This document shows, one piece after another, positions 1,628 to 25,306 of a DNA stretch of 64,000 nt (within the stretch, counting starts at the first letter, position 1; each line of letters opens with the position of its first letter). The translations under genes and the position numbers were made by a program. The stretch covers positions 19,777-83,776 of the forward strand of contig CAYZYT010000006.1 of assembly GCA_964482725.1 (NCBI GenBank), given 5' to 3'. The notes below the pieces were generated by a model that was given only the letters and a program-made list of their open reading frames with translations, was not told where the DNA came from and ran no database searches. Origin of the DNA: an uncultured bacterium. GTDB lineage: Bacteria > Omnitrophota > Omnitrophia > Omnitrophales > Aquincolibacteriaceae.

Positions 1628-1665
1628 AGAAGATCGCCGAGGAGTCGGCCTGGGTCAGGCCCAGG

Positions 1666-2130
1666 TCAGACCTTGCGATTCTCTTCTTTTGCGATCAGAT
1701 CGAAGATATCCTTCGGAGTTTTGCACTTTCGGATAAGCTCGCAAAAATAAGTGTCCCGGAGAAGTCTTGAGATCTGCGCCAGCGCTTTAAGATGTGGCCC
1801 CGCGGTATCTTTGGGCGCGACCAACAGGAACAGGATATAGACCGGTTCGCCATCCAAGGCTTCAAAGTTCACTCCCTTGCGGCTGACGCCGAGGACCGCC
1901 ACAAGGCCATCGACTTTGTCGGTCTTCCCGTGCGGGATCGCGATCCCCTGCCCGATCCCCGTTGAGCCAAGATTTTCACGCTCGATCAAAGCGCGCAGGA
2001 TATTTTTTTTATCTCCCACGTCTTTGACCTCAGCCAAAAGATCGACCATTTCCTTCAGAATGCCTTCTTTGTCGGTCGCTTCCAGATCGACCTTAATGCC
2101 TTTGATGTTCAAAAAATCGGTGATCTTCAT
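1666..2130 (-). CDS. ptsN: PTS IIA-like nitrogen-regulatory protein (EIIA-Ntr)
   Basis: 154 aa. It has the GIAIPHGK active-site histidine motif. It sits downstream of hpf, as in the rpoN operon. Confidence 0.8.
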   Translation of the reverse strand: MKITDFLNIKGIKVDLEATDKEGILKEMVDLLAEVKDVGDKKNILRALIERENLGSTGIGQGIAIPHGKTDKVDGLVAVLGVSRKGVNFEALDGEPVYILFLLVAPKDTAGPHLKALAQISRLLRDTYFCELIRKCKTPKDIFDLIAKEENRKV

Positions 2131-3500: not shown

Positions 3501-4385
3501 TCAGAGCACTCCCTTCCCGAGAGCTGCATTGCCATCCCCTTTGAAATAAAGGGCTTCGGTATCTCCCCCCAAGATGATCCGTCCTTCGTCCGCCAGATAG
3601 ATCACGCTATCGGAATAGGTCTTGTTCCCGTCGGGATTCTCGATCACCACATCCCCCGCGGATACGATCTTTGAAACACGACGGCTTACGCGATTGTAAT
3701 AAACATCCATGGTGTCGGCCGTAAGTTTCCCTCGGGAATCCTGCGCGACAACATTATCCCTGAAATGCGCGATATTCTTTTCGTAGTCAACGACAAGGGT
3801 CCCATCACAGGTGATGGTCGTCGGTCCCGTCTCTTTATCCTCGGTATTTTGCACCACCACCGTCACATTCTTTTGAAATTTTACCTTTTTAAGGTTGGTC
3901 TCCGCCCGGGCCCCCGTGCCCTCCACGTTAATATTATCCTTCTTCACCTGGGTGGGCAGATCGGTCTCCACAATGTGCTCCGAGGGGCTCATATCCAGAG
4001 CCTCGGTCACAAGTCTCGTCCCATCATCGGTCGTGGCCACCACATTTTTTTCGAGATGGATCTTGTTCTTTTTCTTGTCGTATTGACCGCGATCCGCGGT
4101 CACCGTGACGGGAACTTCCTCAGCATACGCCTTGGCCATGACGTTCATGAGCTGCACGGTATTGGAAAGGATATTCGCGGAATCACCTTCGATCTCGATC
4201 TCGCGCTGCCCCTCGGGCGTATACTTGGTAAACGAAAAAGTGAAGATTTTTTGCGGTTTCTGTTCGGAAGGTTTCTCGACCCCCTGCTCGGCCCTTTGCT
4301 TGCGGGTGATGACCACCTGCACCTGCACAAAAAACACATAGAACACCACAAGCGTAACAAAGATAAAAACAAGACGTTTGATCAT
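3501..4385 (-). CDS. Membrane-anchored LptC/LptA-family (OstA-like) LPS export protein, possibly an LptC-LptA fusion
   Basis: It has an N-terminal TM helix. The C-terminal half carries OstA/LptA-type beta-jellyroll repeats (ITCDGTLVVDYEKNIAHFRDNVV...GDVVIENPDG). It lies immediately upstream of lptB. Confidence 0.55.
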   Translation of the reverse strand: MIKRLVFIFVTLVVFYVFFVQVQVVITRKQRAEQGVEKPSEQKPQKIFTFSFTKYTPEGQREIEIEGDSANILSNTVQLMNVMAKAYAEEVPVTVTADRGQYDKKKNKIHLEKNVVATTDDGTRLVTEALDMSPSEHIVETDLPTQVKKDNINVEGTGARAETNLKKVKFQKNVTVVVQNTEDKETGPTTITCDGTLVVDYEKNIAHFRDNVVAQDSRGKLTADTMDVYYNRVSRRVSKIVSAGDVVIENPDGNKTYSDSVIYLADEGRIILGGDTEALYFKGDGNAALGKGVL

Positions 4386-5326
4386 GGGCGTTTCACTTTC
4401 TCCTTTAATTCCGCCACAGCCCCCTCGTCGGGCTTTGTTTTCCAGCGGTCATGCATCCACCCCCATTGTTCCGGGTAACGACGGATCACTTCTTCGAAAT
4501 CCTTCATCCAAGCTTCGGTATATTTCCGGATCGAGGCCGTCCGGTCACCCGCTTCGATCTTCGGCCGAAGCAAATTCCCCAAAAGCAGCTTATATCGACC
4601 CCCGGGCATTCGCACCATAAACGCGGGCAAGATCGGCGCTCCCGAGGCCATGGCAAATTTCACCGGGGCCACGGACGTATAAGCCGGTCTCCCAAAAAAA
4701 TCAACAAAAATGCTCCGGACACTGTCTCGATCCTGGTCCGGCAGGATCCCTACGATCTCACCCGCCTTCAGCGCCGCATAGATCTGCCTGACGGCCTGAT
4801 CCTGGTAGATAGTACGAACCTTCACAGCACTCCGCAAGCCTACGATCCACTGATTGTACGGCTCATAATAGATCCGCCGGCCCACCACGGCGCCTGGAAA
4901 CCCCCGCAGGCAAAAGATCCCGGCCAAAAGCTCCCAGTTGCCCAGGTGCGCCGTCATTATAATGAGCCCTCTCCCTTCTTGCAAAATATCTTTGCAGAAA
5001 GAATAGGCCTCGCCGACCTCCACAATCGAGGTCGCTTGGTCCCGGGACAGTCTTGAAAAGCGCAAGAAATCCACGGCCGTCTGGAGCATGTGCCCCATCG
5101 CCCCCCGGCCGATCGCCTCCATTTCTTTGGGACTTTTTGTGTCACCGTACGCCAGCTTCAGATTTTCAAGGATCTTCGTTCTTTGGCGCGAAACAAACCT
5201 GTACCCCAAATGCCCGACCTTATTGGCAAGTCCCAGAGCCCAACTTCGTGGCAGGATCAGCAAAAGTCCCGCGGCAAGCCTTGTTAAAAGATAAACCGGA
5301 TAGCGATAGAATCTGTGTTTGGCCAT
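4382..5326 (-). CDS. lpxL: Lipid A biosynthesis (Kdo2-lipid IVA) acyltransferase, LpxL/HtrB family
   Basis: 314 aa with an HLGNWE acyltransferase motif. It lies between lptC/A and kdsD. Confidence 0.8.
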   Translation of the reverse strand: MAKHRFYRYPVYLLTRLAAGLLLILPRSWALGLANKVGHLGYRFVSRQRTKILENLKLAYGDTKSPKEMEAIGRGAMGHMLQTAVDFLRFSRLSRDQATSIVEVGEAYSFCKDILQEGRGLIIMTAHLGNWELLAGIFCLRGFPGAVVGRRIYYEPYNQWIVGLRSAVKVRTIYQDQAVRQIYAALKAGEIVGILPDQDRDSVRSIFVDFFGRPAYTSVAPVKFAMASGAPILPAFMVRMPGGRYKLLLGNLLRPKIEAGDRTASIRKYTEAWMKDFEEVIRRYPEQWGWMHDRWKTKPDEGAVAELKEKVKRP

Positions 5327-6305: not shown

Positions 6306-6309
6306 GATC

Positions 6310-8912
<2,603 letters not shown>

Positions 8913-11221: not shown

Positions 11222-12736
11222 TTAAGCGTCAAAAAGGCTGACGGTGGAAAAGTCGGTGTCACTGGTGACATTGATCCCGAGCCGCTTCAGCCCCTTGTCA
11301 TCCCCCGAAGTCGGGATATGGGTCATATGGGCTTCGCAACCGCTCAACTCCTTGAGTTTTGCCATAGCGGCCTCAGCTGAGGGATTGGTGGCAGCACTAA
11401 TGCTCAGGGCCACCAAGATCTCATCCAGGTTCAGACTGACGGCGTGAAATCCCATGATATCCTGTTTGAGACGTCCGATAGATTCAATCACCCCGAGCGA
11501 CAAAAGATGGATACTGTCGGGAATGCCGGCAAGTTTCTTGACGGCATTCAGCACAAGGCTCGAGGCCGCGTGCATGAGCGGCGTATTTTTCCCGGTCACG
11601 ATCGATCCATCATGAAGTTCGATCGCCGCACCGCAACAAATCCCTTTATTGCCCTCACCGAGACGGAGCGATTCCCGGGACATTTCCCGCGCAGGGAGCA
11701 CCACGCGCCGGTCATCGCTTTTCGCGTCCAGCTCCTTCATCAAAAGTTCTGTCCTTTGCGCTGCTTCTTTTTCCACGTAGCCCATGACGTATTCGCAGGA
11801 ATAACGGAAATACCGCGAGATCACTTCCTGGACGGCAGCCTTGCGAACGATCTCGTCATCCACGATCCCAAAACCGGCACAGTTAACGCCCATGTCCGTC
11901 GGCGATTTATAGACCGAGCGATTCCCCATGATCTTCTTGAGGATCCTCTGAACCACCGGAAAGATCTCAAGATCGCGATTGTAGTTTACCGTGGTCTTGT
12001 GATGGGCCTCCAGGTGGAACGAATCGATCATGTTGACGTCCCCCAGATCCGCAGTCGCCGCTTCGTAGGCAATGTTCACGGGATGCTTGAGCGGCAGGTT
12101 CCAGATCGGAAAGGTCTCGAACTTCGAATAACCGCTTTCAAGGCCTTTCACATGATCATGATAAATCTGGGAAAGACAGGTCCCCAGTTTGCCGCTGCCG
12201 GGCCCAGGTCCCGTCACGATCACGATCGGATTTTTTGTCTCGATATGCTCGTTAGCGCCATACCCCTCCGGGCTCACGATCATTTCCACATCGGTAGGAT
12301 ACCCTTTGGTAAACCGGTGCGTATAGACACGAACACCGCGCCGCTCCAGTTTATTCTTAAAAATCTTGGCCGCAGGCTGCTCGGTAAATCGCGTGATCAC
12401 CACCGCCGTGACCCTCAACCCCCATGTCTTCAGATCATCGATCAGCTTGAAAGCATCCGCATCATAGGTAATCCCGAAATCCGCGCGAAGCTTCCGCCGC
12501 TCAATGGCCCCGGCATGGATGCAAAGGATGATGTCGATCTTGTCCTTCAGTTTTTGGAGGAGCCGCATCTTGACGTTGGGATCATATCCGGGCAGGACGC
12601 GCGCGGCATGATGATCGAAAAGCAATTTTCCGCCGAACTCGATATAAAGTTTGTTGCTGTATTTTTTGACCCGCTTGAGAATGGCTTCCGACTGTTCCTT
12701 CAGATATTTGTCGTTATCAAAACCTGTTTTTTTCAT
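11222..12736 (-). CDS. DUF1846/UPF0371 family protein
   Basis: It is 504 aa. It is collinear with the UPF0371 family as I recall it (LYIEFGGKLL.DHHAARVLPGYDP, TGPGPGSGKL, KFETFPIWNLPLKHPVNIAYEAATADL). Confidence 0.65.
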   Translation of the reverse strand: MKKTGFDNDKYLKEQSEAILKRVKKYSNKLYIEFGGKLLFDHHAARVLPGYDPNVKMRLLQKLKDKIDIILCIHAGAIERRKLRADFGITYDADAFKLIDDLKTWGLRVTAVVITRFTEQPAAKIFKNKLERRGVRVYTHRFTKGYPTDVEMIVSPEGYGANEHIETKNPIVIVTGPGPGSGKLGTCLSQIYHDHVKGLESGYSKFETFPIWNLPLKHPVNIAYEAATADLGDVNMIDSFHLEAHHKTTVNYNRDLEIFPVVQRILKKIMGNRSVYKSPTDMGVNCAGFGIVDDEIVRKAAVQEVISRYFRYSCEYVMGYVEKEAAQRTELLMKELDAKSDDRRVVLPAREMSRESLRLGEGNKGICCGAAIELHDGSIVTGKNTPLMHAASSLVLNAVKKLAGIPDSIHLLSLGVIESIGRLKQDIMGFHAVSLNLDEILVALSISAATNPSAEAAMAKLKELSGCEAHMTHIPTSGDDKGLKRLGINVTSDTDFSTVSLFDA

Positions 12737-13046: not shown

Positions 13047-13823
13047 TTAAGCGCCGATGCCGGGCTCGTAGCCGGAAAGCATAGCGACCACTTCCCCGAG
13101 AACGGGGACCTTGACCTTCATCACGAGCGGAATGCGACGCTCGTCCAGGCTCATCCAGCCACGGACTTTTCCGCGACGGACAAAAAAACCTTCGAACAAA
13201 ATGATCGGCTCGACTTCGACCGCCTGAAAAACACCCACATCCTCGATCTTCATTTCCTTAATGCCATGCGTAACAACTTCAAGGTCCCAGTTCTTTTCAT
13301 CCGCATTGACCGGGATCAGGGTCTTGGAATCGGGTTTTAGATCCTGCATCCGGAGCCAATAGCAGCAAGAGATCTGGTCCTGGACGTTCTGCGGGACGAA
13401 CATTTCCTTCCGGCTGTTGTCCTTGCGGGAATAAAATCGGCCGACATGCTCGTCCTGGTTATATTCCATCGACTCGTCCGTCCAGTAACTTCCCTCTTTG
13501 ATCTTTTTTTCGTAACGAAGAGAATGAAAATGCTCAGCATCGATATAGGTGTGATGCGTGTCCCGAACCTTGTAGATCCAGTCGAGGATCGCGCGAGACC
13601 GGACGTTGATCTCGATATGATAAGCATCGCGCCCGTTCACTTTCACAAGTCCTTTGACTTCGGCCTCCGCCTCCCCCACCGTGATCCCGAGATAACTGAC
13701 TTCAAACTTTATTTTCTCTCCGAGAAAGATCTTCGCCGCGGGTTTTTCAGAGGCTGGGAAAATTTTTTCCGGCTCGGGGGCGGAAAACCCCATGGGGATC
13801 AAGACCAGCATAAACATTGTCAT
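13047..13823 (-). CDS. DUF3108-like secreted protein
   Basis: It has a signal peptide MTMFMLVLIPMGFSAP and then beta-rich blocks (IKFEVSYLGITVGEAEAEV...). The track ORF continues to 13943 only by reading through the hairpin repeat. Confidence 0.45.
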   Translation of the reverse strand: MTMFMLVLIPMGFSAPEPEKIFPASEKPAAKIFLGEKIKFEVSYLGITVGEAEAEVKGLVKVNGRDAYHIEINVRSRAILDWIYKVRDTHHTYIDAEHFHSLRYEKKIKEGSYWTDESMEYNQDEHVGRFYSRKDNSRKEMFVPQNVQDQISCCYWLRMQDLKPDSKTLIPVNADEKNWDLEVVTHGIKEMKIEDVGVFQAVEVEPIILFEGFFVRRGKVRGWMSLDERRIPLVMKVKVPVLGEVVAMLSGYEPGIGA

Positions 13824-13880
13824 TCCCGCGAAAGCGGGGATCCAGAATCTGGATCCCCGATAGAAGATTTCGGGGATGAC
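13819..13880. repeat. Nested palindromic hairpin-repeat element (complete, gene-less copy A)
   Basis: The sequence is gtcattcccgc-gaaa-gcggg GATCCAGAATCTGGATC cccga-tagaagatt-tcggggatgac. It consists of two terminal hairpins and a central 9+9 palindrome. It translates as ...RFWIPAFAGMT. Confidence 0.8.
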
Positions 13881-13914
13881 GCATTTTCGGCAAAGACAAA
13901 ACTTTCGCATATTT

Positions 13915-14664
13915 TTAATTCCGGATAGTTCCGTCAAGACCAACCACGACCCTCTTAACGGGAAGATGGGTTCCGGAAAGCTCGACCGCTTCCTGGACCA
14001 TACGAAAGAGGCCGGTGCAGCACGGCACTTCCATGATCACCACGGTCAGCGAATAAACTGTGTTGTTCTTGAGAAGTTCCGCGATCTTCTCGACATAACC
14101 CCCGGTCTCATCGAGCTTGGGACACGCGATCGCGAGTCTCTTGCCCTTGAGCATATCCTGATGAAAACTTCCGAGCGCAAAGGCGGTGCAGTCCGCGGCG
14201 ATCAAAAGATCACATTCCTTAAAATAGGGCGCAACCGGTGAGATCAAATGCAGCTGGATCGGCCACTGGCTGAGCTCCGAGGGGGCGGGACCCGAAAAGC
14301 CTTCCTTTTTTCCGGAGACTTCAGATTTTATCTCACGAGCCATGGACCCCGGACACCCGCCGAAATGCGGCATGCCGTCAGAAGCTCCGTGGACTTTTTT
14401 AGCAGCCTCGAATCCCTGGGTCTTCATGACATGGTGAAAAGCCGCCTTGGCATCATACTCGTCGCTATCCCTTTCGATGATCTTAAGAGCATCGACAGGA
14501 CAAACATTGAGACACGCTCCCATTCCGTCACAAAAAATTTCTTTAACGAGCATGGCTTTTTTTTGTTCATCCAACACCAAAGCGCCTTCTGCACAGGCCT
14601 GGGTACAAAGTCCGCACCCGTTGCATTTTTCCCGGTCGATCTCGATGATCTTACGCTTGGCCAT
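13915..14664 (-). CDS. 4Fe-4S dicluster domain protein
   Basis: It has two CxxCxxCxxxCP motifs near the N-terminus (CNGCGLCTQAC, CDGMGACLNVCP) and further Cys clusters at the C-terminus. Confidence 0.6.
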   Translation of the reverse strand: MAKRKIIEIDREKCNGCGLCTQACAEGALVLDEQKKAMLVKEIFCDGMGACLNVCPVDALKIIERDSDEYDAKAAFHHVMKTQGFEAAKKVHGASDGMPHFGGCPGSMAREIKSEVSGKKEGFSGPAPSELSQWPIQLHLISPVAPYFKECDLLIAADCTAFALGSFHQDMLKGKRLAIACPKLDETGGYVEKIAELLKNNTVYSLTVVIMEVPCCTGLFRMVQEAVELSGTHLPVKRVVVGLDGTIRN

Positions 14665-14671
14665 AGCTCTC

Positions 14672-15763
14672 TCAGAGGGACTTTTTCTTTATCATTTCCA
14701 TCGCTTCATCGGGCGTCAGGTCTTTCAAACACGCGATCGTCGGACACTGCTTATTGTAACGGAATTTGTAATAACAGGGACGGCATTCGAGGTCCCGTTT
14801 AAAAATGGCGATCGCGTCATGCGAAGGCGGGAACGGTCCGTAGACCTCGGGCGACACGGGACCATAAAACGCAATGAGCGGCACATGGAGCGCGCGCGCC
14901 AAATGCACCAGACCTCCGTCATTCCCGATAAAAAGCGAGGATTTCGTCAGTACCATGGCCGTTTGCGCAAGCCGAGTCTCCCCCGCTAATACAACCGAGG
15001 GCGGCTTGAGCATCGCCTGTAATTCTTCACAAAGCGCCCGCTCGGAGCGGCTGCCCAGGATAGCAACGCCATGAAAGCCCCGCTCCGCCTGAAGCTTTGC
15101 GATCAACTCCGCGAAATATTTCACGGGCCAACGTTTGAAAGCAGCCTCTTTCCCCCAAGAGTCTCCCCCGCCGGGGGCGACCGCGAGAAAACGCTCCGGC
15201 AGAAGCCTGATCTTGTCGGCGACCTCGACTTCGATCAACGACGTGGGCCTGGGGAAATAATATTCCAGAAAACGGTCTTCCACGGGGATTCCGGCCGCTT
15301 CAGCAAGATCACAATAAAAGTCCACGGCATGCCGCTTCCAGAACGCCTCCGGAAGCGGGAAGCGGATATTATGAAACGTTGCGCGTTTTTTGTACGCGAA
15401 TCCCGCGCAGCGCGGAATCCCCAGAAAGAACCGGCCGAAAAAAGCATGCTCGCGCCGGAGCGAATAATCCAGGATCAGGTCATAATGCTTCGCCCGGAGC
15501 TTCCGGCCCAAATCCCAACTGTCGCGAAGATTTTCCAGCCAACTCTGACGATGGGCGCGATCCTTATCCACGACAAAAATATCATCGATGTGAGGATTAT
15601 TTTCCACAACCTCGCGTGTCCGGGACCCCAAAAGCAGATCGACGGTCTCGACCGTCGGGATGAGGCGCAACGCGCGCATCACCGGCGTCACAAAAAGAAG
15701 ATCCCCGATCCCATACGGATGCACGATCAAAATGCGTCTTAAGGTTCTCATACCTCGCTTCAC
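14672..15763 (-). CDS. Glycosyltransferase family 9 (ADP-heptose:LPS heptosyltransferase-like)
   Basis: It has the N-terminus RILIVHPYGIGDLLFVTPVMRAL and a C-terminal GNDGGLVHLA(R)ALHVPLIA block. Confidence 0.8.
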   Translation of the reverse strand: MKRGMRTLRRILIVHPYGIGDLLFVTPVMRALRLIPTVETVDLLLGSRTREVVENNPHIDDIFVVDKDRAHRQSWLENLRDSWDLGRKLRAKHYDLILDYSLRREHAFFGRFFLGIPRCAGFAYKKRATFHNIRFPLPEAFWKRHAVDFYCDLAEAAGIPVEDRFLEYYFPRPTSLIEVEVADKIRLLPERFLAVAPGGGDSWGKEAAFKRWPVKYFAELIAKLQAERGFHGVAILGSRSERALCEELQAMLKPPSVVLAGETRLAQTAMVLTKSSLFIGNDGGLVHLARALHVPLIAFYGPVSPEVYGPFPPSHDAIAIFKRDLECRPCYYKFRYNKQCPTIACLKDLTPDEAMEMIKKKSL

Positions 15764-16812
15764 TCCTTCTCTTTTTTAGAGAGGATAAGATCTTTTGCCG
15801 CACGATACACATCCTCCACCGCGATCTCATCGATATAGGTGAACTTCCGCTCGGCTGCGGGAACATGGGAAACATCTTTCGCGACTACGCGCGAGTTCTT
15901 CCCCAACGGTTGCCACCGTTGGGGCCCGAGGCCCGCTTCATACCTCCCAAAAATGGAAACCACCGGCGTGCCGACCGCCGTCGCGATATGGACAGGCCCG
16001 GAGTCATTGGAAACCAGCAAGGCCGATCTCTTCAAAAGCGCGCCCAGTTGCCCCAGCGAAAGCTTTCCACTCAGGTCAAAGATCGGAACGGGGGTGTGTT
16101 TTATCAGCTTTTGAATGATGGGTCGATCTTTGGCAGTTCCGATCGCGAGAAAGACGCTGGGATGATCTTTTTGGATCCGCGTCACAAGCTCGGCAAAGCG
16201 CTCCGAAGGCCACATTTTGGTCCCATCGCTCGCTGAAGGATTCAAAACGATCCACGGAAGATCGCAAGGGATTTTATGGAAGAGGCGCAAGGACTCGAAA
16301 GACCGAACGGATCGATCCGGGACAGGGAAAAAGGTCGCGATCTCTTGCGGCGGATTCACCCCCAGAAGACCCAGGAGTTCGAAAAGATATTCGGCCTCCT
16401 GTTTTTTTCCTTCTTTTTTATTGTAAGCGTACGCATGCGTCAGCGCCCAAGGCGCGCGGCGATCATAGCCGATACGCACGGGGATCCCCGCGAGCCACGC
16501 CGCCAAGTGCATCCGGTTCGTGCCGTGGGCGTGGACCACCGCATCGAATTTTTTGCTCCGGAGTTTTTGGCTGAAACAGCCTTGTCCCCAAAGCCCTCGT
16601 TCCTTCCCTTTTTTGTCATAGAGGATCACTTCATCAAGAAAGGGATTCCCCTGAACGATCTCGCGATGTTCGAGGAACACCCCCATTGCGATCCAGGCCT
16701 TCGGGAATTTTTCGCGTAAGGCTTTTAAAAGCGGTGTGGTGAGGACCAGATCCCCGATGCGATCTGTCCGCGTTATGAGAAAACGTGGGGCGTCAGGCAG
16801 CTTGAGCGGCAT
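15760..16812 (-). CDS. Glycosyltransferase family 9 heptosyltransferase-like paralogue
   Basis: It has RFLITRTDRIGDLVLTTPLLKAL and SNDSGPVHIATAVGTPVVSIFG. It overlaps its neighbour by 4 nt. Confidence 0.8.
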   Translation of the reverse strand: MPLKLPDAPRFLITRTDRIGDLVLTTPLLKALREKFPKAWIAMGVFLEHREIVQGNPFLDEVILYDKKGKERGLWGQGCFSQKLRSKKFDAVVHAHGTNRMHLAAWLAGIPVRIGYDRRAPWALTHAYAYNKKEGKKQEAEYLFELLGLLGVNPPQEIATFFPVPDRSVRSFESLRLFHKIPCDLPWIVLNPSASDGTKMWPSERFAELVTRIQKDHPSVFLAIGTAKDRPIIQKLIKHTPVPIFDLSGKLSLGQLGALLKRSALLVSNDSGPVHIATAVGTPVVSIFGRYEAGLGPQRWQPLGKNSRVVAKDVSHVPAAERKFTYIDEIAVEDVYRAAKDLILSKKEKE

Positions 16813-17755
16813 TCAGAAGCTCCAGAGAAAGCTCGACCACTTTTTCCGGTTTGAGTCCATGGAAGCAACTCCGCTCGGAAGGGATCAGTTTTTCGGATCC
16901 GCAGGCACAGGTTTGAGCCTCTCCCCGCGCGATGCGGAATTTCGGACCCGCGTGGCCGTACTTCTCATGGTCCGTGGGGCCAAAGATCCCGACGGTCGGC
17001 GTGCCCAATTCGAACCCAAGATGCATGATCGCGCTATCGTTGGCGAGTACAAGCGACGCGTTCGCGATAAGCGCCACCGTCTCGGGCAAAACCAGATCCC
17101 CGCAAAGCACTCCGACGATCCCGGAAAGTTCCGCCCGGATGCTGTCGGCCACCGGCCTTTCCTCCAGAGTTCCCACCAAAAGGATCTTCTTCCCGGTCTT
17201 CTCGTGAAGCGCCCGGATCACTTCTTTAAAATCCCGAACCGGCCATCGCTTCCGCTCGCTAGCGGCCCCGGCCGCCACGAGGATCCATCCGCTCTTTTCC
17301 TGGATCCCTGCCACTTCCAGAGCGCGCATTGCAAACACCTCATCCGCTTTGTTGAAGAAATGAAAAAGAGAGGGGGCCGGGATATCCGGTTCCACGGTCG
17401 CAAGCATTTCGAAATGGCGGTCCCGCATATTGACCTTGGAGAATTTCCTGAAGAGAGGCGTCCGCTTCTTGCAGGAGACCAGGAACGGGATCATGGTATT
17501 CCGGAGATCTACTACAAGGTCATATTTTGCCTTGCGAAGTTCCAAAATGAATTTCACCTTTTGCCAAAAGGTAGCTTTCTTGTCATAGATCACGATCTTG
17601 TGGATGTCGGGACTTCGCTGGAGCACACTCCGCGCACGCGGCCCCACCACCACCGTGAGGCGCGCCTCAGGGTATTTCTGGACAAGCGCCATGATGACCG
17701 GCGTCGTGAGAATGACATCGCCGAAATTACTAAGCGTCACCACAAGGATATTCAT
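16793..17755 (-). CDS. Glycosyltransferase family 9 heptosyltransferase-like paralogue
   Basis: It has MNILVVTLSNFGDVILTTPVIMAL and ANDSAIMHLGFELGTPTVGIFGPTD. Confidence 0.8.
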   Translation of the reverse strand: MNILVVTLSNFGDVILTTPVIMALVQKYPEARLTVVVGPRARSVLQRSPDIHKIVIYDKKATFWQKVKFILELRKAKYDLVVDLRNTMIPFLVSCKKRTPLFRKFSKVNMRDRHFEMLATVEPDIPAPSLFHFFNKADEVFAMRALEVAGIQEKSGWILVAAGAASERKRWPVRDFKEVIRALHEKTGKKILLVGTLEERPVADSIRAELSGIVGVLCGDLVLPETVALIANASLVLANDSAIMHLGFELGTPTVGIFGPTDHEKYGHAGPKFRIARGEAQTCACGSEKLIPSERSCFHGLKPEKVVELSLELLNAAQAA

Positions 17756-18894
17756 GCTTTTCTCAAGATCCTTTCGACCGCATCCAAAACCTCTTCCGGA
17801 GCGATCCGGGAGAGCCAGCCTTCGTCGGGAATGTCTTTACCGAAAAACGGGACTGAATAACCCGGCGGGACATATTGTAACACGATGCTTTCGCCGATCC
17901 CACGGGGTCCGGTGAGCTTCGGATCGGTCGGGCCAAAAAGGGCGATGACCGGAGCGCCGACGCCGGAGGCGATATGCATGGGCCCGGAATCCCCCGTCAC
18001 GAGGCACGCCGCCTGCTGGTAGATCGCGGCGGAGACACGGAGTCCCGTCTTCCCGACCAAGGAAATGATCTTCGCAAGACGAACCTTTGAGATAAATTCC
18101 TCGAAGAGAACCTGATCGTTCCGAGAACCCGTCACCACGATGGGGCATTTCCATTTCTCCTGGATCTTCTCCGCGAGCGCCGCAAAATGCCCGGCCGGCC
18201 AGCGCTTTGGCTCCCAGTTCGCTCCCAGATGAAAACAAATGTATTTGTCATTATTTTGGATGCCGTGTGCCCCGAGGATCTCACGCGCCGCTTGCGCGTC
18301 CTCTTCCTTATAAAAGAAACGGTACTCCTTTTCCGCCGGAAGTTCGAACCCGGCCTCCTTCATCAGATTGAAAAAATAATCCAGCTGGTGCATCGGCCGC
18401 GCGGGCTCTTCGATCGCCTGCGTCAAAAACAATTTCCGCCCTTTTCCGTAACCGGTGCGTTCCTTGACCCCGGCAAGCGCGAGGAAGATCGCGCGGGATC
18501 GGGAACGGTGAAAAAGATAACCCCGGTCCCAGGGCCCGCGCCTCCTCAGCTCCAGAAGGAATCGCATTCTCGCAAGCCAGGTGCGGTGTGTGCTTTTCTC
18601 GTCAAAGCTCAAAAAATCCGAAACCGCAGGATGCGCTTCCAGGATCTCCCGGCACCGCTCGGGTGCGATGCAAGTGATCGACGCCCCAGGATATTTTTGT
18701 TTGATCCGATCAAGCGCGGGCATCTGGAAAAGCAGGTCCCCGAGCCAGTTTTTCATCACGACAACGATCTTAGGGGACACGCCTTGAGGGAGGACCTGCC
18801 CTCCGCGAAGGGATCCGTTTTTAGCGGAGTTCATAAGCTGAGCACCCTTTGGCAATGTTCGAACACTTCTTCCACGGAAATATGCGAGAGACAA
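17752..18894 (-). CDS. Glycosyltransferase family 9 heptosyltransferase-like paralogue. The start is probably internal, near 18834 or later.
   Basis: It has KIVVVMKNWLGDLLFQMPAL and TGDSGPMHIASGVGAPVIALFGPTD. The 5' end of the ORF overlaps the upstream gene by 64 nt. Confidence 0.75.
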   Translation of the reverse strand: MSLAYFRGRSVRTLPKGAQLMNSAKNGSLRGGQVLPQGVSPKIVVVMKNWLGDLLFQMPALDRIKQKYPGASITCIAPERCREILEAHPAVSDFLSFDEKSTHRTWLARMRFLLELRRRGPWDRGYLFHRSRSRAIFLALAGVKERTGYGKGRKLFLTQAIEEPARPMHQLDYFFNLMKEAGFELPAEKEYRFFYKEEDAQAAREILGAHGIQNNDKYICFHLGANWEPKRWPAGHFAALAEKIQEKWKCPIVVTGSRNDQVLFEEFISKVRLAKIISLVGKTGLRVSAAIYQQAACLVTGDSGPMHIASGVGAPVIALFGPTDPKLTGPRGIGESIVLQYVPPGYSVPFFGKDIPDEGWLSRIAPEEVLDAVERILRKA

Positions 18895-20927
18895 GCCTTC
18901 GGTTCTTTCGCTTTACAGGTCCCCTCGTAGCAGGGCTGGCAGGAAAGGTGATGCGAAAGCACGTCGATCTTTTTCCCCGGAGGGACATGACGCTTGGCGT
19001 CCGTCGGTCCGAACAAGGCCACGATTGGAACATTCATCGCCGCGGCCATATGAAGCGGCGCGGTATCCCCGGTCACGACTAAATGGAATTGTTTGAAAAA
19101 AGCCGGCAATTCCTCCAACTCGGTTTTGCCGATAAGGTCGAGGATCTTACCGGCCCCGAAGGAGTAAAAAGGTTGCCCGAGATCCGCTTCGTCAGGAGAA
19201 CCGATCAGGACGATCCGTGCGTCATATTTCTCGAGCAGCCGCTTGGCCAGAGCGACAAAATGCTCCGCGGGCCAGCGCTTGCTCGGCCAGTTCGGGCTGG
19301 ACCCCATGACAAACCCGATGATCCGTGTGGATTCTCCGGGTTCGAGGGTCTGCATCCTCTGTTGCGCTTTTTCAAGACTCTCGGGTTTCGGCCATAGCTC
19401 CAGCGTATCGTCGAATTTGATGACCCCGGCCTTGGACAGCACGCGAAATTGATGGCGAAGAGGCGAATCGCCGACCTCGAAAGTCCTGTCGGGCCGGTTC
19501 AGAAGCCATCCCCATCTCCCGCGCGCAAAACCGAAACGCTGGACCGCCCCGCCCAGATACGCCAGAAGATGCGTCCATTTGTTATTGTGAAGATCGACCG
19601 ACATATCGAAACCTTCCCGGCGGACGCGTCGCGCGGTCTTTAAAAGATAAAAAATGTTCGAAAGCTTTTTCCGTTCCACCAGGATCATGTCATCCAGGTA
19701 CGGACAGGCGGAAACGATCGGGGCGAGCTTGCGATCGACCAGGAGCGTGATCGCGGCGTCGGGAAAACGTTCCTTGAGCATTCGAAGACTCGGCACGACC
19801 AGGATGAGATCCCCCATCGCCCCCAGTTTGATCACGAGGATCCTTCGCCGCTTACGGACTTCCTGGTAGACCTCGAGCGTTTTCCGGACCATCTGTTCCA
19901 GGTTGAATTTCTCCTCCACTTTTTTCCGCAGTTTCACCGCAAATGCCTTCGCCTTATCCCGGTCCGTCAAAAGCTCGTACATCGCCTCGGCCATCGCGGG
20001 GATATTCCTCGGGGGGAAAAGCAATCCATTCTCATTGTGATCCAGGATGTCCGGCACGCCACCCAGCCAGGTCGCAGCCACAGGGGTCCCCACAGCGCCC
20101 GCCTCAATGATCACACGCCCGAAAGGTTCCGGGATGAGCGAGGAAAGCACCAAAAGATCGGACTCGGCCAAAAGCCCCGCGACATCACGCGTCGGCGGCA
20201 GGATCTTGACGCAGGATTCGAGTCCAAACTGATGGACCGTTTTTTTCATCAGGTCCGTGTAGCGGTGTTTGCCGCGGCCTTCGGAGCCAACGATCCACAC
20301 TTCAAAATGGGAGAGCCGGCTGCGCAATAAATGAATGGCTTTGAGAAATTCCACCTGGCCTTTGGCCGGGGAGAACCGTCCGATATGGATGATCCGCATC
20401 GGTCCTTTGTGTTTTTCGAATTTCGCAAAAGAGAAAGTGAATTGTGAAAGATCGACGCCGCGAGGGATCAATCGAATGCGGTCCGGAGGAACATTGAACT
20501 CGTCGATCATCCTCCGGCCGATCGCATGTGACGCCACGATCACGCGCTTCCCCCACCCCATAACATAGCTCATCGGATGAACGGAATAATGCCCGTGACA
20601 GGTGGTGATAAAGGGAATACCGGTCTTGCGCGCCGCGAGCCATCCGAGCCAGGCTGGGACGCGGCTGCGGGCGTGAATAATATCCACGCGTTCCCGCTGG
20701 ATGATCTTCACAAGCTCTTCCACCAGGAATAATCCGGCAAGCGATTTCTGGTGAACAGGCAGGCCGTAATGCGGGATCCCGATCTTCTGAAGCTCGGCCA
20801 CAAGCGATCCGCCGGAGGAAACGACCAGCGTTGCGTGTCCTTCTTTTTTCATGGCACGGGCCAGGTCCACCACCCCGCGTTCGGTCCCTCCGAGCTCAAG
20901 CGCCGGCAAAAGCTGCATTACTTTCAT
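18831..20927 (-). CDS. Bifunctional glycosyltransferase with an N-terminal GT4 (GT-B, EX7E) domain fused to a C-terminal GT9 heptosyltransferase-like domain
   Basis: Residues 1-350 have GT4 hallmarks (MKVMQLLPALELGGTERGV..., EPFGRVIIEAGAVGTPVAA). Residues 360-698 carry the GT9 pattern (ILVIKLGAMGDLILVVPSL..., TGDTAPLHMAAAMNVPIVALFGPTD). Confidence 0.75.
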   Translation of the reverse strand: MKVMQLLPALELGGTERGVVDLARAMKKEGHATLVVSSGGSLVAELQKIGIPHYGLPVHQKSLAGLFLVEELVKIIQRERVDIIHARSRVPAWLGWLAARKTGIPFITTCHGHYSVHPMSYVMGWGKRVIVASHAIGRRMIDEFNVPPDRIRLIPRGVDLSQFTFSFAKFEKHKGPMRIIHIGRFSPAKGQVEFLKAIHLLRSRLSHFEVWIVGSEGRGKHRYTDLMKKTVHQFGLESCVKILPPTRDVAGLLAESDLLVLSSLIPEPFGRVIIEAGAVGTPVAATWLGGVPDILDHNENGLLFPPRNIPAMAEAMYELLTDRDKAKAFAVKLRKKVEEKFNLEQMVRKTLEVYQEVRKRRRILVIKLGAMGDLILVVPSLRMLKERFPDAAITLLVDRKLAPIVSACPYLDDMILVERKKLSNIFYLLKTARRVRREGFDMSVDLHNNKWTHLLAYLGGAVQRFGFARGRWGWLLNRPDRTFEVGDSPLRHQFRVLSKAGVIKFDDTLELWPKPESLEKAQQRMQTLEPGESTRIIGFVMGSSPNWPSKRWPAEHFVALAKRLLEKYDARIVLIGSPDEADLGQPFYSFGAGKILDLIGKTELEELPAFFKQFHLVVTGDTAPLHMAAAMNVPIVALFGPTDAKRHVPPGKKIDVLSHHLSCQPCYEGTCKAKEPKACLSHISVEEVFEHCQRVLSL

Positions 20928-20985: not shown

Positions 20986-22935
20986 TCATATCAAACCTCC
21001 CAGCCGCTCGATCAAGGCATCTTTTTCGCGTTGAAGAACCGGTGTTGCGGGTTGCTTCAGGAGTCCTGTCATATGCTTTTCCAGGTCCGCCAGACTGCTC
21101 AAGGTCACGAGCCCGCGCTGGGCAAGGATCTGATGAAAACGGTAATGTTTACCGGGAAGCTCTCCTCCCCCGAGGCTCAGCACGATCACACGCTTGCCCG
21201 TTCCCACGGCTTCCGAGATCATGGCAAGACTGTCCTCCGTCACGATCAAAAGGTCCGCGAGCCCCATCATCCCGCCCGACGCGTAAGGCGGATTCTCTTC
21301 ATTGGCGATCACGAGAAACCGGCAAAAGGGATGCTGCAAAAGCGCCTCCTTAAGAAAACGTTCCACCGGGGCCGACGTTCGCCGGGACGTGGTGATCATA
21401 CAGTCTCCGGTGCACGGACTTGTGCTTTTCAAGATCGAAAAAAGTTTCTCCATGTCATCGACCCTCAAGTCATAGCCCCGCGTGGCACCTCCGAGAAACA
21501 CCGCCACTCTCGGCCGGACCCCGTCTCCCAGTTTCGCTCGCAGCTGGCTCACATCCGCCTCGCGATCCAAAGTTTTGTACCCGCTCGGCATGACCCCACA
21601 ACGGATCGTCCGCTTGGGGACTAGACCGCTATCATGGGCCGGCACGATCGCCAGGTCATAATGCGTCGCGGAATAGGGAAAGGGCGGATTCATGATCACG
21701 ATCTTTTTTGCCCCGGTCTCCTGCGCCAGAAGCATCTGGAGCGGAGCAAGCCCGGAACCTGCCGCGATAATATAATCGGCGTTCGCCTGCTCGATCGCTT
21801 TTTGTGTTTCCGCGGTAAAAAAGGGTGCGAGCCCATGGAGCCTTCCCTGGATCCAGGGTTTCATCAGAAAGGCCAGACAGAACAAAGCCGTCCTGTGGAA
21901 CGCCGAGCGGTATTCCACAAGGATCTTTTCTGTTTCAAATTTAAGGCCGGGACGACCGTGGAATTCCTTGAAATCCGAGAGCATCTCCGCCACCCCCTCG
22001 GATTGTTTTAAATGCCCCGCTTTCCCGTCCGAAAGGATCACGATCTTCCGATCCCAACAATACTTCCAGCGCTTATTCTCCCAAAGCCATTGGTTCGGGA
22101 ATTTCCGGATAAAACCTTCGAGCACGTCCAGGTATTGCCGGACCTGGAACTCCACGCGCGCCTGCGGCGCAAGCGAGGGATCATCTTTCAGAACCTCTTC
22201 AGCATAGACCTCGTGTTCGCGCCCACCGGTTCTCACGATAAAGAAGGGCATAATAAACGCGTCCGTGCGATGCGCCAACTGGAAAGCCCCTGTCGGGACC
22301 GTAGTCCTTCGACCAAAGAACGGCAGAAGGATCCCGTCGGTCTTGCCCGCCGATTGATCGCCCAGGACCCCGATCATTTTTTTCTCGCGAAGTGCGCGGA
22401 TCAGACCCCGGATGCCCGCGCCACGAGGGATGGAAACCGAACCGTGGCTTTCCCGAAGTTCGTTGATCAATCCGTTGATCCTCGGATATTTCTGCTCCCG
22501 CGTCAGCACGTGGATCGGCGTACCGCGAAGCCCGGACCAAACCTGCAAAAGCTCCCAGTTCCCAAAATGCGCGGTGATCAGAACCCCGCCATGCCCCGAG
22601 CGAAGAAGCGCTTCGTAACGGTCCAGGTGGTGGATCTTGACATCAAGATCGTGATGCTTGCGTTTCATCTGTTTAAAAGACATCACTTCCACGGCGGTCT
22701 GCCCCATAAAACCAAAATGATCCCGCACGGCTTTCCATCGCTCCCCGGGGGTCAGCTGCCCCCCCAGCACGGCCTTCAGATTGATGTAAGCCACGCGCCG
22801 TTTGGAGGAGACATAAAACACCCCGCGTCCCACGAGATCACCGGCCCGGAGGCTGATCGCGAACGGGATACGCTCAAAAATAAAAATGAGAGCGCGCGCT
22901 GCCAGGCAAGCGACGCGATCCAGCAGGGCTTCCAT
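20986..22935 (-). CDS. Lipid A biosynthesis acyltransferase (LpxL/LpxM-like) fused to a C-terminal ELM1/DUF1022-like domain
   Basis: The N-terminal roughly 300 aa have an HFGNWE acyltransferase motif and family blocks. The C-terminal roughly 350 aa form a Rossmann-like domain (KIVILSDGKAGHLKQSEGVAEML...) resembling the ELM1-type domain. Confidence 0.65.
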   Translation of the reverse strand: MEALLDRVACLAARALIFIFERIPFAISLRAGDLVGRGVFYVSSKRRVAYINLKAVLGGQLTPGERWKAVRDHFGFMGQTAVEVMSFKQMKRKHHDLDVKIHHLDRYEALLRSGHGGVLITAHFGNWELLQVWSGLRGTPIHVLTREQKYPRINGLINELRESHGSVSIPRGAGIRGLIRALREKKMIGVLGDQSAGKTDGILLPFFGRRTTVPTGAFQLAHRTDAFIMPFFIVRTGGREHEVYAEEVLKDDPSLAPQARVEFQVRQYLDVLEGFIRKFPNQWLWENKRWKYCWDRKIVILSDGKAGHLKQSEGVAEMLSDFKEFHGRPGLKFETEKILVEYRSAFHRTALFCLAFLMKPWIQGRLHGLAPFFTAETQKAIEQANADYIIAAGSGLAPLQMLLAQETGAKKIVIMNPPFPYSATHYDLAIVPAHDSGLVPKRTIRCGVMPSGYKTLDREADVSQLRAKLGDGVRPRVAVFLGGATRGYDLRVDDMEKLFSILKSTSPCTGDCMITTSRRTSAPVERFLKEALLQHPFCRFLVIANEENPPYASGGMMGLADLLIVTEDSLAMISEAVGTGKRVIVLSLGGGELPGKHYRFHQILAQRGLVTLSSLADLEKHMTGLLKQPATPVLQREKDALIERLGGLI

Positions 22936-22938
22936 GAA

Positions 22939-23988
22939 TTAATTCCTTACTCCGAGCAAACGGAATAGCCGGTCGGTGAGGATCTCTTCTCCCGATACCA
23001 CGCGAAGCCGCGCGGCAAGGACCAGCGGGTTGAGCGTTTCTGTGATCAGCTCACGGGAACGGTAAAAATCTTTTTCCGTCGTGATGATCTCTTCGGCCCC
23101 GGCGGATTGCGCAACTTCCTTGATCTTCAAAAGCTCTTCCCGGGTGTATTCATGGTGATCCAGAAATTCAAAGTTCCGGACGGTCTTGAGCTGAAAACGC
23201 TGCAAGACGAGCTGAAAGGACCTCGGCGTCCCTACCGCCGCGAAAGTTGCGACGCGCCGGCCGGCCATCTTTTCGATCACGGTCCGGACTTTGGTCTTGG
23301 CACGATAAAGGAAGAGCACTTCCATCATCGTCTCGACGATTTGCGCCTGCGGCGCCAGGGCCGCGATCTTTTCCCTGAGTTTTTTGAGCTCTTCGGGACT
23401 CACAAGATTTACGTGGGTGAGCACGAGGATGGCGGCACGCTTCAGGACCTCGAGCGGTTCGCGCAAAATACCCCGGGGGATGAGTTTCCCATTGCCGAAG
23501 GGGTTCAACGAATTGACGACCACGATGTCGACATCCCGGTGAAGGACTTGATGCTGAAGCCCATCGTCGAGAATGGCAATATCCACATGCCGCTTTTCGT
23601 CTTTCACGCGCTGCGCGACCTTCGCACGATCCTTACCGACACCAATGACGGCCGTCGGAAGATGATTCTGAAGTTCCAGGGCCTCATCATGGCTGTAACC
23701 GCGCATGAGGACCAGGGGCACGCGCCGGTGCATCCCGATCTTGCGCGCGAGATATTCCACGAAAGGCGTTTTACCTGTGCCGCCCCAGGTCAGATTCCCG
23801 ACGCTGATCACCGGATACGGAAGCCGCTTGCGTGCCAGGACCTTGCGTTCATAAAGCCCGCGGAACACCCGAACCCCGTGACCGTACCCCCAGGCTGCGA
23901 GAGAAAGAAGCCCGGTGAGCACTCCGTTCGTCGGGTCATTTTGTTTGTCCTCCGCCAGGAGACGAAAGTAATTCTTCATGCTGTCCAT
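22939..23988 (-). CDS. lpxK: Tetraacyldisaccharide 4'-kinase
   Basis: It has the P-loop VISVGNLTWGGTGKTP typical of LpxK. It overlaps waaA. Confidence 0.85.
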   Translation of the reverse strand: MDSMKNYFRLLAEDKQNDPTNGVLTGLLSLAAWGYGHGVRVFRGLYERKVLARKRLPYPVISVGNLTWGGTGKTPFVEYLARKIGMHRRVPLVLMRGYSHDEALELQNHLPTAVIGVGKDRAKVAQRVKDEKRHVDIAILDDGLQHQVLHRDVDIVVVNSLNPFGNGKLIPRGILREPLEVLKRAAILVLTHVNLVSPEELKKLREKIAALAPQAQIVETMMEVLFLYRAKTKVRTVIEKMAGRRVATFAAVGTPRSFQLVLQRFQLKTVRNFEFLDHHEYTREELLKIKEVAQSAGAEEIITTEKDFYRSRELITETLNPLVLAARLRVVSGEEILTDRLFRLLGVRN

Positions 23989-25306
23989 TGATTGTGATCC
24001 TTTCTTGAGGGCGCCGGCTTCTAAGGAACGTCAGGATCCACCCGGCCTGACGTTTGCTGGCACCCCGTAAACGGTTGACGATCTGAAAAGCCTTTTGTCC
24101 CATCTCATGACGCCTGCCCTCATTCGCGAGGAGCTCCGCCGCCGCGGACGACAGTTCGTCCGGAGCCGAGATCCTGAGAGCACCACCGTCATGATCGAGC
24201 TGGTGGTAGATCTTGTGAAAGTTAAAAACATGCACTCCATGGAGTATTGCTTTGCTAAAACGCGCGGGCTCGATCGGGTTCTGACCTCCGTGAGGGATCA
24301 GGCTCCCGCCCATGAACACAAGGTCCGCGATTCCGTACAGATTCTTGAGAACGCCTAACTGGTCCAGCACTAGCACTGCCGGCTCCGGACCTTCTTTTTT
24401 CTTCATCGATGACGCCACGCTAAAACCGTATTTCCCTAATAACTTTAAAAGCCCCTCGGACCGCTCGATATGGCGTGGCGCGAGGATCAACTTCAGTCCC
24501 GGGAACCGTTCGCGCAACGCCTTAAAAGCGACCATGATCATTGCTTCTTCCCCCGGATGCGTGCTGCCCGCGATCCACACAAGATCCCCGGAGTGATACC
24601 CCCAGGCTTCCCGAAGACCCGCCGTATCGTCGGCCCTGTCCGCAGACCATTCTGCCTGGTCAAACTTCAGGTTCCCCATATCCCGCACCGCTTCTTCCGC
24701 AATGCCCAGTCCTCTGAAACGGACGGCATCTTCTTCGGACTGTGCGAGCACAAAATCGAGCTTTCCCCACAAAGGCTTGAAAAGCCAGGGAACGCTCTTG
24801 TACCTTTTAAACGAACGCTTCGACAGCCGGGCGTTGACCACCCCCACCGGGATATCCCGACGCTTAGCTTCGGTCAAAAGATTCGGCCAGATCTCCGTCT
24901 CCACAAGCAACAAACAAACCGGTTTAAAAAGATCGAGAAAACGCTTCACGACGGGAGTCAAGTCGAATGGAAAATAACAGACATGCACTCGTTCGCCCGA
25001 AAATTTTTTGGCGATCCTCTGTCCGGTCGGCGTCACGGTCGTCAGCAAAAGTTCATATTCCGTGGCGGTGGCTAGCCATTCCTCGATGAACTTTTCGACG
25101 GCCATCACTTCCCCCACGCTTACCGCATGAAGCCAGACCACCTTCTTCCCGGCGAATTTTCCGGCCCAGTCCTCCGGAAATATCCCCCGGCGTTCCCGCC
25201 AAAGCGCCTTCGAGTCTTCGGCTTGGCGAAGTTTGGCCCAAAAAATCGGGGCATAAAAGATCGCGAACGCTATGAATGCCAGGTTGTATAAAAAGGTTCT
25301 TAACAT
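23936..25306 (-). CDS. waaA: 3-deoxy-D-manno-octulosonic acid (Kdo) transferase
   Basis: It has VWLHAVSVGEVMAVEKFIEEW and the other KdtA family blocks. It is 456 aa. Confidence 0.9.
   Translation of the reverse strand: MLRTFLYNLAFIAFAIFYAPIFWAKLRQAEDSKALWRERRGIFPEDWAGKFAGKKVVWLHAVSVGEVMAVEKFIEEWLATATEYELLLTTVTPTGQRIAKKFSGERVHVCYFPFDLTPVVKRFLDLFKPVCLLLVETEIWPNLLTEAKRRDIPVGVVNARLSKRSFKRYKSVPWLFKPLWGKLDFVLAQSEEDAVRFRGLGIAEEAVRDMGNLKFDQAEWSADRADDTAGLREAWGYHSGDLVWIAGSTHPGEEAMIMVAFKALRERFPGLKLILAPRHIERSEGLLKLLGKYGFSVASSMKKKEGPEPAVLVLDQLGVLKNLYGIADLVFMGGSLIPHGGQNPIEPARFSKAILHGVHVFNFHKIYHQLDHDGGALRISAPDELSSAAAELLANEGRRHEMGQKAFQIVNRLRGASKRQAGWILTFLRSRRPQERITINGQHEELLSSPGGGQTK

Follow-up and report, generated by a model that had tools for sequence, protein, structure and literature searches.

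The DNA analysed here is a 64,000-nucleotide stretch (the window) of contig CAYZYT010000006.1 from an uncultured member of the Omnitrophota (GenBank assembly GCA_964482725.1). The window includes a gene for a protein of 649 amino acids (aa) that is predicted to combine a late lipid A acyltransferase of the LpxL type with a glycosyltransferase of the ELM1/GtrOC1 family, to which KdoT of Acinetobacter belongs. This LpxL-ELM1 fusion gene occupies positions 20986..22935 of the minus strand as a single, uninterrupted open reading frame (ORF) with an ATG start. It was considered complete on the basis of the start codon, two Pfam domains and collinear homologues of about 649 aa. Pfam assigned aa 15-291 to PF03279 (Lip_A_acyltrans; E 9e-43, 147 bits against a cutoff of 22.3, profile positions 21-294 of 295) and aa 306-612 to PF06258 (Mito_fiss_Elm1; E 9e-44, 150 bits against a cutoff of 27, profile positions 1-277 of 304). 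The NCBIfam models recognised the N-terminal half of the protein and gave no match to the C-terminal half.

The fusion gene follows waaA (23936..25306, minus strand; PF04413 and NCBIfam WaaA models), which encodes the Kdo (3-deoxy-D-manno-oct-2-ulosonic acid) transferase and is the first gene of a conserved block, and lpxK (22939..23988, minus strand; PF02606, and TIGR00682 above cutoff), which encodes the lipid A 4'-kinase. WaaA is the predicted maker of the Kdo-lipid IVA acceptor. The stop codon of lpxK and the ATG of the fusion gene are separated by 3 nucleotides. Because all of these genes lie on the minus strand, the fusion gene is downstream of lpxK in transcription, in the order waaA, lpxK, fusion. 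A first-pass annotation, made from the sequence alone, had placed the gene directly upstream of lpxK and waaA; the adjacency stands, and "upstream" holds for plus-strand coordinates only. Immediately downstream lies a gene for a 698-aa fusion of two glycosyltransferase (GT) domains (18831..20927, minus strand), with a GT4 half at aa ~1-358 and a GT9 half at aa ~360-698 as assigned by Pfam. Two bifunctional lipopolysaccharide (LPS) core proteins, LpxL-ELM1 and GT4-GT9, are thus encoded consecutively.

The N-terminal domain of LpxL-ELM1 (residues 1-295; 22051..22935, minus strand) is an LpxL-type late lipid A acyltransferase of the lysophospholipid acyltransferase superfamily, as indicated by PF03279 and by LpxL/HtrB-type NCBIfam matches. 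It includes the HX4E catalytic motif as HFGNWE (H123 to E128; 22552..22569, minus strand), in which H123, G125, N126, W127 and E128 are invariant among 31 aligned homologues. A hydrophobic helix near the N-terminus, VACLAARALIFIFERIPFAI (residues 8-27; 22855..22914, minus strand), is a probable membrane anchor. In a simple hydropathy calculation this segment gave the highest 19-residue Kyte-Doolittle window of the protein (1.65), and the AlphaFold2 model has a helix at residues 2-22. The solved structures matched by sequence to the acyltransferase half were PatA (5oce) and LpxM (5kn7).

The resemblance of this half to LpxL, LpxM and LpxP, of which A. baumannii LpxM has been solved (PDB 5KN7), therefore extends over the full Pfam domain, the HX4E dyad and the N-terminal hydrophobic helix, and includes the location of the gene in a waaA/lpxK operon. 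Unlike those enzymes, the fusion protein bears an additional 354-aa predicted catalytic domain at its C-terminus, and it scores below every NCBIfam equivalog cutoff. All 17 NCBIfam matches fell below cutoff, the best being PRK08419 (123 bits against 248), and the LpxL, LpxM or LpxP equivalog level was not reached among them. A second, stand-alone LpxL-type acyltransferase is encoded between kdsD and an lptC/A-like gene (4382..5326, minus strand; PF03279, E 3e-44) and is 30% identical to the fused domain. A second paralogue in the same locus is also the arrangement in organisms that have both LpxL and LpxM. The acyltransferase domain with its HFGNWE motif and the conventional LpxL about 16 kb away had both been named in the first-pass annotation, and both are borne out.

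The C-terminal domain (residues 296-649; 20989..22050, minus strand) was assigned to the ELM1/GtrOC1/KdoT family of GT-B glycosyltransferases from PF06258, its AlphaFold2 model and Foldseek comparison. The model of the domain alone (mean predicted local distance difference test score, pLDDT, 91.5; predicted template modelling score, pTM, 0.83) consists of alternating beta and alpha elements in two halves. Foldseek returned 274 PDB matches at E<=1e-3, and almost all of the best 50 listed are GT-B-fold enzymes. They include UDP-GlcNAc 2-epimerases, glycogen and trehalose-phosphate synthases, and GT1 enzymes, with template modelling (TM) scores of 0.4-0.54 and ~12% identity. The predicted structure thus makes the fold class clear and places the domain at a distance from all solved relatives, and a sequence search for a solved relative of the domain found none. 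The Rossmann-like, ELM1-type C-terminal half described in the first-pass annotation accordingly takes the form of a two-Rossmann GT-B fold. The third-ranked Foldseek match was 8b6f_A0, a 503-aa subunit of Tetrahymena mitochondrial complex I (E 4e-8); this match may be of interest, as the family takes its name from a mitochondrial protein, or may equally reflect a generic GT-B-like fold.

Motif conservation was assessed in 37 genomes with 28-85% identity, and a separate cross-phylum alignment included Natroniella, Methylobacterium and Sinorhizobium. The loop DGKAGHLKQ (22003..22029, minus strand), which includes D303, H308 and Q311 and has its Asp and His at positions 8 and 13 of the domain, retains D, G, H and Q in all 37 genomes. 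The pair H434-D435 (21631..21636, minus strand) and the motif S517-R518-R519-T520 (SRRT; 21376..21387, minus strand) are likewise invariant in 37 of 37. In the donor-binding half, the motif DSLAMISE (21211..21234, minus strand) has conserved D568, S569, M572, S574 and E575, and was aligned by hhalign to the GT9 motif (T)GDSGPMH(I/L)A. Across phyla, S-R-R is invariant in the Omnitrophota, Natroniella (Halanaerobiales), Methylobacterium and Sinorhizobium; the homologues from the last three genera also retain the glycine loop, the Asp of the HD pair, GG and DS..M. The His of the glycine loop is replaced in alphaproteobacterial ELM1 sequences.

The two domains meet without a linker at PNQWLWENKRWKYCWDRKIVILSDGKAGHLKQ (22003..22098, minus strand), with the end of the LpxL domain leading directly into the first beta-strand and glycine loop of the GT-B domain. 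In the alignment of 31 sequences, the invariant positions run through this junction: W285, K288, R289, W290, K291 and W294 are followed by L301, S302, D303, K305, G307, H308, K310 and Q311. The mean pLDDT is 78 for residues 281-290 and 90 for residues 291-300, and the model of the full-length protein has a pLDDT of 88.7 and a pTM of 0.84. Together, the high whole-protein pTM and the invariant, linker-free junction suggest two enzymes held in a fixed arrangement rather than as beads on a string.

A protein search spanning ~5.8 billion proteins, clustered at 90% identity, found both Pfam domains in one protein of ~649 aa in more than 120 clusters, with identities from 96% down to ~40%; all of the clusters with an organism name were from Candidatus Omnitrophota. 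With only the C-terminal domain as query, an exhaustive HMMER search gave 2454 representatives at 50% identity. Among the best 150 of these, 91 are full-length fusions in which the ELM1 domain begins at about residue 295. Entries of 400-575 aa, including those of 480-527 aa, were considered as a possible third architecture and rejected, 19 of the 20 inspected being N-terminally truncated fusions. These 19 are truncated gene calls, as their N-terminus aligns to the back of the LpxL domain, up to about residue 291-295.

NCBI labels close homologues "ELM1/GtrOC1 family putative glycosyltransferase", and automatic annotation names one half of the protein per pipeline, either as "lauroyltransferase" or as "ELM1/GtrOC1". 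Hence the bifunctional nature of the protein is invisible in databases. A literature search found no description of an LpxL-ELM1 fusion, and a search on "DUF1022" found no papers. Both halves belong to known families, and it is their fusion for which no earlier description was found.

A scan of one genome per GTDB species identified 274 relatives, and the best 79 loci were examined. These 79 came from Omnitrophota metagenome-assembled genomes (MAGs) together with a few MAGs labelled Planctomycetia at ~30% identity, and essentially all were fused, which bears on the question raised in the first-pass annotation of whether orthologues are split or fused. Unfused genes also exist, as in L075 and L082. 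Over 70 Omnitrophota species genomes carry the fusion, down to ~30% identity. As judged by tblastn with genes of the window, the gene order topA-xerC-waaA-lpxK-[LpxL-ELM1]-[GT4-GT9]-GT9-GT9-GT9(-GT9)-(Fer4)-DUF3108 is constant in ~70 loci. The GT4-GT9 fusion is kept in nearly all of the Omnitrophota loci and is also found in the unrelated locus L082.

The two loci with unfused genes differ in context. In L075, a 369-aa ELM1 gene with its own start (5558-6667, plus strand) lies directly after lpxK in the same synteny, without an LpxL domain. In L082, the stand-alone ELM1 gene (1023-2078, plus strand) is part of the order GT9 - ELM1 - GT4-GT9 fusion - GT4 - deacetylase - GT9 x3. In a rough neighbour-joining tree, drawn without bootstrap, L075 and a second sequence (P0122) were nested inside the fused clade, and a separate stand-alone clade branched near the deepest fused lineages. 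This placement suggests that L075 and P0122 arose by secondary fission, L075 having apparently lost the acyltransferase half.

A stand-alone gene was also found in the diderm Firmicute Natroniella acetigena (L080, 7795-17294), in the order waaA - Kdo/WaaP-kinase-like - ELM1 - GT4 - kinase x2 - Wzy_C - PIG-L - GT9. This cluster is a compact LPS-core locus, with a KdoT-like gene, three Kdo/WaaP-kinase-like genes, a WaaL-like ligase and a PIG-L deacetylase. The adjacency of ELM1 and a following GT4 gene is present in the Omnitrophota, in Natroniella and in L082. The unit shared across phyla is thus ELM1 followed by GT4 in a waaA/core cluster, and the fusion to LpxL is an elaboration of this unit in the Omnitrophota. 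A search of plasmids and chromids for relatives returned alphaproteobacterial ELM1 genes, among which the Methylobacterium gene adjoins carB and greA rather than LPS genes; this neighbourhood is uninformative.

Experimental knowledge of the bacterial family comes from Acinetobacter. GtrOC1, encoded by the first gene of the A. baumannii outer-core (OC) locus, was predicted to be a glycosyltransferase from membership of Mito_fiss_Elm1 alone (PMC4172580). In 2024, genetics and mass spectrometry reported in mBio showed that A1S_2903, the ELM1-like product of the first core-locus gene, and LpsB are needed for the addition of KdoIII and N-acetylglucosaminuronic acid (GlcNAcA) (PMC10936431). From the shared locus position and family, GtrOC1 and A1S_2903 are apparently the same protein. 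Purified A1S_2903, named KdoT, was then shown to transfer Kdo from cytidine monophosphate-Kdo (CMP-Kdo) to Kdo2-lipid IVA (VanOtterloo, Voss & Trent, Journal of Biological Chemistry, December 2025; PMC12856342). The same study reported that a tetra-acylated substrate is preferred and that lipid IVA without Kdo is not used. The KdoIII expected from this activity is alpha-(2->5)-linked, and its addition is a step of the "split Kdo pathway" described in Acinetobacter. The GT4 enzyme GnaT (LpsB) acts after KdoT and adds GlcNAcA (PMC12856342); the two are co-required in vivo for a reason that is unexplained (PMC12856342; PMC10936431). A homologue from Rickettsia complements a kdoT deletion (PMC12856342).

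Mutagenesis showed that the invariant, donor-positioning SRRT motif of KdoT is required, with R180 the critical residue, for which a contact to the CMP-Kdo carboxylate was modelled (PMC12856342). Residues D8, H13, H109 and D110 lie together in the modelled active site and are each individually dispensable, and H13 is replaced in homologues from outside Acinetobacter (PMC12856342). Within the ELM1/GtrOC1 family, biochemical characterisation exists for KdoT only, and since December 2025 the activity can no longer be called uncharacterised at the level of the family. The first-pass annotation had proposed an uncharacterised activity, possibly a lipid A or Kdo decoration step; the decoration step fits the KdoIII transfer by KdoT and the retained SRRT motif, and the word "uncharacterised" has been overtaken by that work.

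Residues of KdoT and of the fusion were matched by published numbering, motif identity and motif order rather than by direct sequence alignment. On this basis, D303 and H308 of the fusion probably correspond to D8 and H13 of KdoT, with the same D-x4-H spacing, H434-D435 probably corresponds to H109-D110, and R519 of the SRRT motif corresponds to the critical R180. The two proteins share PF06258, the GT-B fold, an LPS-core context, a GT4 enzyme next in the pathway or operon and an expected action on the product of WaaA. KdoT differs in being a stand-alone, ~35-kDa peripheral protein without a membrane anchor, encoded by a gene that is not adjacent to gnaT. The domain in the fusion, on the other hand, has ~354 aa, with the D-x4-H loop and the HD pair set ~30 residues further apart, is joined to LpxL without a linker, is followed directly by the GT4-GT9 fusion and has diverged widely in sequence.

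It is highly probable that LpxL-ELM1 is genuinely bifunctional in LPS synthesis and that its GT-B half is catalytic and acts on the Kdo/inner-core region. The fuller interpretation that we favour, with reasonable though lesser assurance, is of a bifunctional, membrane-anchored enzyme that acylates and glycosylates Kdo2-lipid IVA, most likely with Kdo. As regards the donor that we infer, we lean towards CMP-Kdo specifically.

The operon is nearly collinear with the pathway that this interpretation would entail. LpxK would give lipid IVA, WaaA would add Kdo, and the LpxL domain, with its HX4E dyad and hydrophobic helix, would place a secondary acyl chain on the Kdo-substituted lipid IVA. The C-terminal domain, as an inverting GT-B enzyme with CMP-Kdo as donor, would add a further Kdo to the Kdo region of that lipid intermediate, i.e. 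the KdoIII step. The GT4 half of the next protein, a candidate partner by analogy with GnaT/LpsB, would extend the added Kdo residue, and GT9 domains would continue the core. Through fusion, a transferase that is peripheral in Acinetobacter would gain the membrane anchor of LpxL, the stoichiometry would be fixed at 1:1, and one rigid protein would contain both active sites for a shared acceptor, the Kdo2-lipid IVA made by WaaA.

Several points weigh against this interpretation. The C-terminal domain is a divergent member of PF06258, scoring 150 bits where the Methylobacterium homologue scores 314, and is 22-27% identical to alphaproteobacterial ELM1 members; because of this strong divergence, the donor specificity could have changed. 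The correspondence of its residues with those of KdoT is drawn from numbering, motif identity and motif order, and conservation of the counterparts of D8, H13, H109 and D110 is weak mechanistic evidence because each is dispensable in KdoT. It is the fusion alone that points to a coupling of acylation with glycosylation and to a shared acceptor. To our knowledge, no biochemistry exists for Omnitrophota proteins, and the LPS structure of the phylum is not known. Finally, a weak resemblance of the donor half to GT9 profiles would fit a non-Kdo donor equally well.

This resemblance came from hhalign comparisons with families of the same loci. The donor half gave probabilities of 71, 45, 45, 31 and 9% against five GT9 families, while the values for the C-terminal domain were 11% with WaaA, 2.6% with GT4, and 7% and 0.3% with the LpxK and LpxL controls. 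Among the local families, the donor-binding half thus aligns best, if weakly, with GT9, and corresponding motifs are in register. Besides the GT-B fold and the shared operon, the likeness to the GT9 heptosyltransferases WaaC and WaaF consists of the donor-half motif pairs FLGG/HLGANW, TTSRR/VTGS and VTEDSxSMISEA/VTGDSGPMHIA. The similarity is confined to that half: the N-terminal, acceptor half of the domain is unrelated to theirs at the sequence level, and the domain had no match to PF01075, the Pfam GT9 family.

Such observations bear on the possibility that the sugar which the ELM1 domain adds to Kdo or the inner core is not Kdo but, for example, a hexose, heptose or uronic acid, in which case the protein would join LpxL to a first-core-sugar transferase of new specificity. 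The divergent Pfam score and the alignment with ADP-heptose-type GT9 profiles agree with this explanation, as does the variety within the family: A. baumannii OC loci encode several distinct ELM1-family Gtr proteins (GtrOC1, 14, 19 and 22), and a different linkage is expected from each (PMC4172580); hence the family is not mono-specific. However, SRRT is strictly invariant, and its second Arg is the residue that is required in KdoT and is modelled at the CMP-Kdo carboxylate. In addition, the conserved ELM1 -> GT4 pairing mirrors KdoT -> GnaT, and the operon already offers five GT9 domains for heptose-type steps. A non-Kdo donor is therefore regarded as rather unlikely, and transfer of Kdo remains the favoured activity.

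It is far less probable that the lipid A backbone is the target of the ELM1 domain, which might add a sugar to the 1- or 4'-phosphate, or that the domain replaces the disaccharide synthase LpxB. The gene directly follows lpxK, no lpxA, lpxB, lpxC or lpxD was found within the 64-kb window, and LpxB likewise has a GT-B fold. Their absence from one window says little, however, because early lpx genes usually cluster elsewhere in the genome. The LpxB family was absent among the Pfam and NCBIfam matches of the fusion at E<=0.01, and the LpxL domain fused to ELM1 belongs to a step after WaaA. Moreover, KdoT is inactive on Kdo-free lipid IVA (PMC12856342) and is present in A. baumannii on top of a normal Raetz pathway.

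Equally hard to sustain is a role of the domain as a non-catalytic adaptor or scaffold that recruits downstream glycosyltransferases to LpxL at the membrane. Plant ELM1 (ELONGATED MITOCHONDRIA 1), which belongs to the same family and gave it its Pfam name, is known solely as a recruitment factor, according to the summary in PMC10936431. The unexplained co-dependence of KdoT and GnaT in vivo, and the high full-length pTM, which hints at a structural unit, could also be accommodated. Plant ELM1 acts in mitochondrial fission and has no known enzymatic activity, whereas the bacterial context here is wholly that of LPS biosynthesis. Against a scaffold, the small polar and charged residues of the D-G-K-x-G-H-x-x-Q loop, HD, GG, SRRT and DS..M.SE are strictly conserved across 28-85% identity and, from the motif positions, would line the cleft in which a GT-B enzyme binds its donor and acceptor, and the bacterial member KdoT is catalytically active when purified.

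Virtually no chance is given to an assembly or frameshift artefact joining two neighbouring genes, which the first-pass annotation had named as a reason to withdraw its finding: one cluster does contain a split pair (295 aa and 370 aa, on a 2.3-kb contig) beside a 649-aa member, and a few genomes (L075 and L082) have a genuinely stand-alone ELM1 gene, but this explanation is refuted by the intact frame, by the same ~649-aa protein in hundreds of independent assemblies from different projects and among the relatives in the genome scan, by residues that are invariant across the junction and by a model that is confident through it.

The window has further LPS genes. Four further GT9 (heptosyltransferase-family) genes (14672..18894, minus strand; PF01075) complete the core-oligosaccharide operon. 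With the GT9 half of the GT4-GT9 protein, the segment 14672-20927 (minus strand) thus encodes five tandem GT9 domains, which is unusually many for one core operon. The operon ends with genes for a 4Fe-4S ferredoxin-like protein (13915-14664) and a DUF3108 protein (13047-13943), both on the minus strand. Their position is kept in many Omnitrophota genomes (L001-L066), which suggests an unrecognised LPS-linked role.

The LPS super-locus goes on within the window with genes for a PfkB kinase, pyrG, kdsA, kdsD, the second lpxL, an LptC/LptA-like gene and lptB. The Kdo-synthesis genes kdsA and kdsD and the CTP synthase gene pyrG are in the same co-directional block, and we infer that pyrG is tied to the supply of CMP-Kdo. 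A gene for a 504-aa DUF1846 protein with both DUF1846 domains (11222-12736, minus strand; E 5e-164) separates the core operon from the genes for the PfkB kinase and pyrG. The gene just before lptB (3501-4385, minus strand) encodes a 294-aa protein with an LptC domain at aa 30-177 and an LptA/LptD_N-type domain at aa 197-275, and the product appears to be an LptC-LptA fusion.

In a greedy ORF map, ~56 of 64 ORFs lie on the minus strand. This extreme co-orientation begins with ribosomal and secY genes, continues over genes of amino-acid biosynthesis and takes in the LPS super-locus. At 53311-55305 (minus strand) a Mfd/TRCF-like protein of 664 aa has UvrB-interaction, CarD/RID and helicase domains. 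A typical Mfd has ~1150 aa, well above this length.

The function of bacterial ELM1/GtrOC1 proteins was obscure until the work on KdoT in 2024-2025, and was then established in Acinetobacter only, together with complementation by the Rickettsia homologue. The LpxL-ELM1 fusion provides independent genomic evidence of the "Rosetta-stone" kind, which suggests a place for this family beside late acylation, at the stage of Kdo2-lipid IVA. With the Natroniella homologue, the data further suggest that KdoT-like genes in a waaA/GT4 core context reach a candidate phylum of the PVC (Planctomycetes-Verrucomicrobia-Chlamydiae) group and the diderm Firmicutes. The adjacency of ELM1 and GT4 genes and the double fusions offer a tractable natural system for the question of why KdoT needs GnaT in vivo.

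More tentatively, LpxL-KdoT-like and GT4-GT9 proteins may together form a membrane-anchored inner-core assembly line that couples acylation, transfer of Kdo or a new sugar, and the next two glycosylations, or else the donor of the divergent ELM1 domain may not be CMP-Kdo, in which case the domain would help to make an inner core of an undescribed type. If the assembly line is real, the Omnitrophota would have a hard-wired, natural version of the co-dependence of KdoT and GnaT in Acinetobacter.

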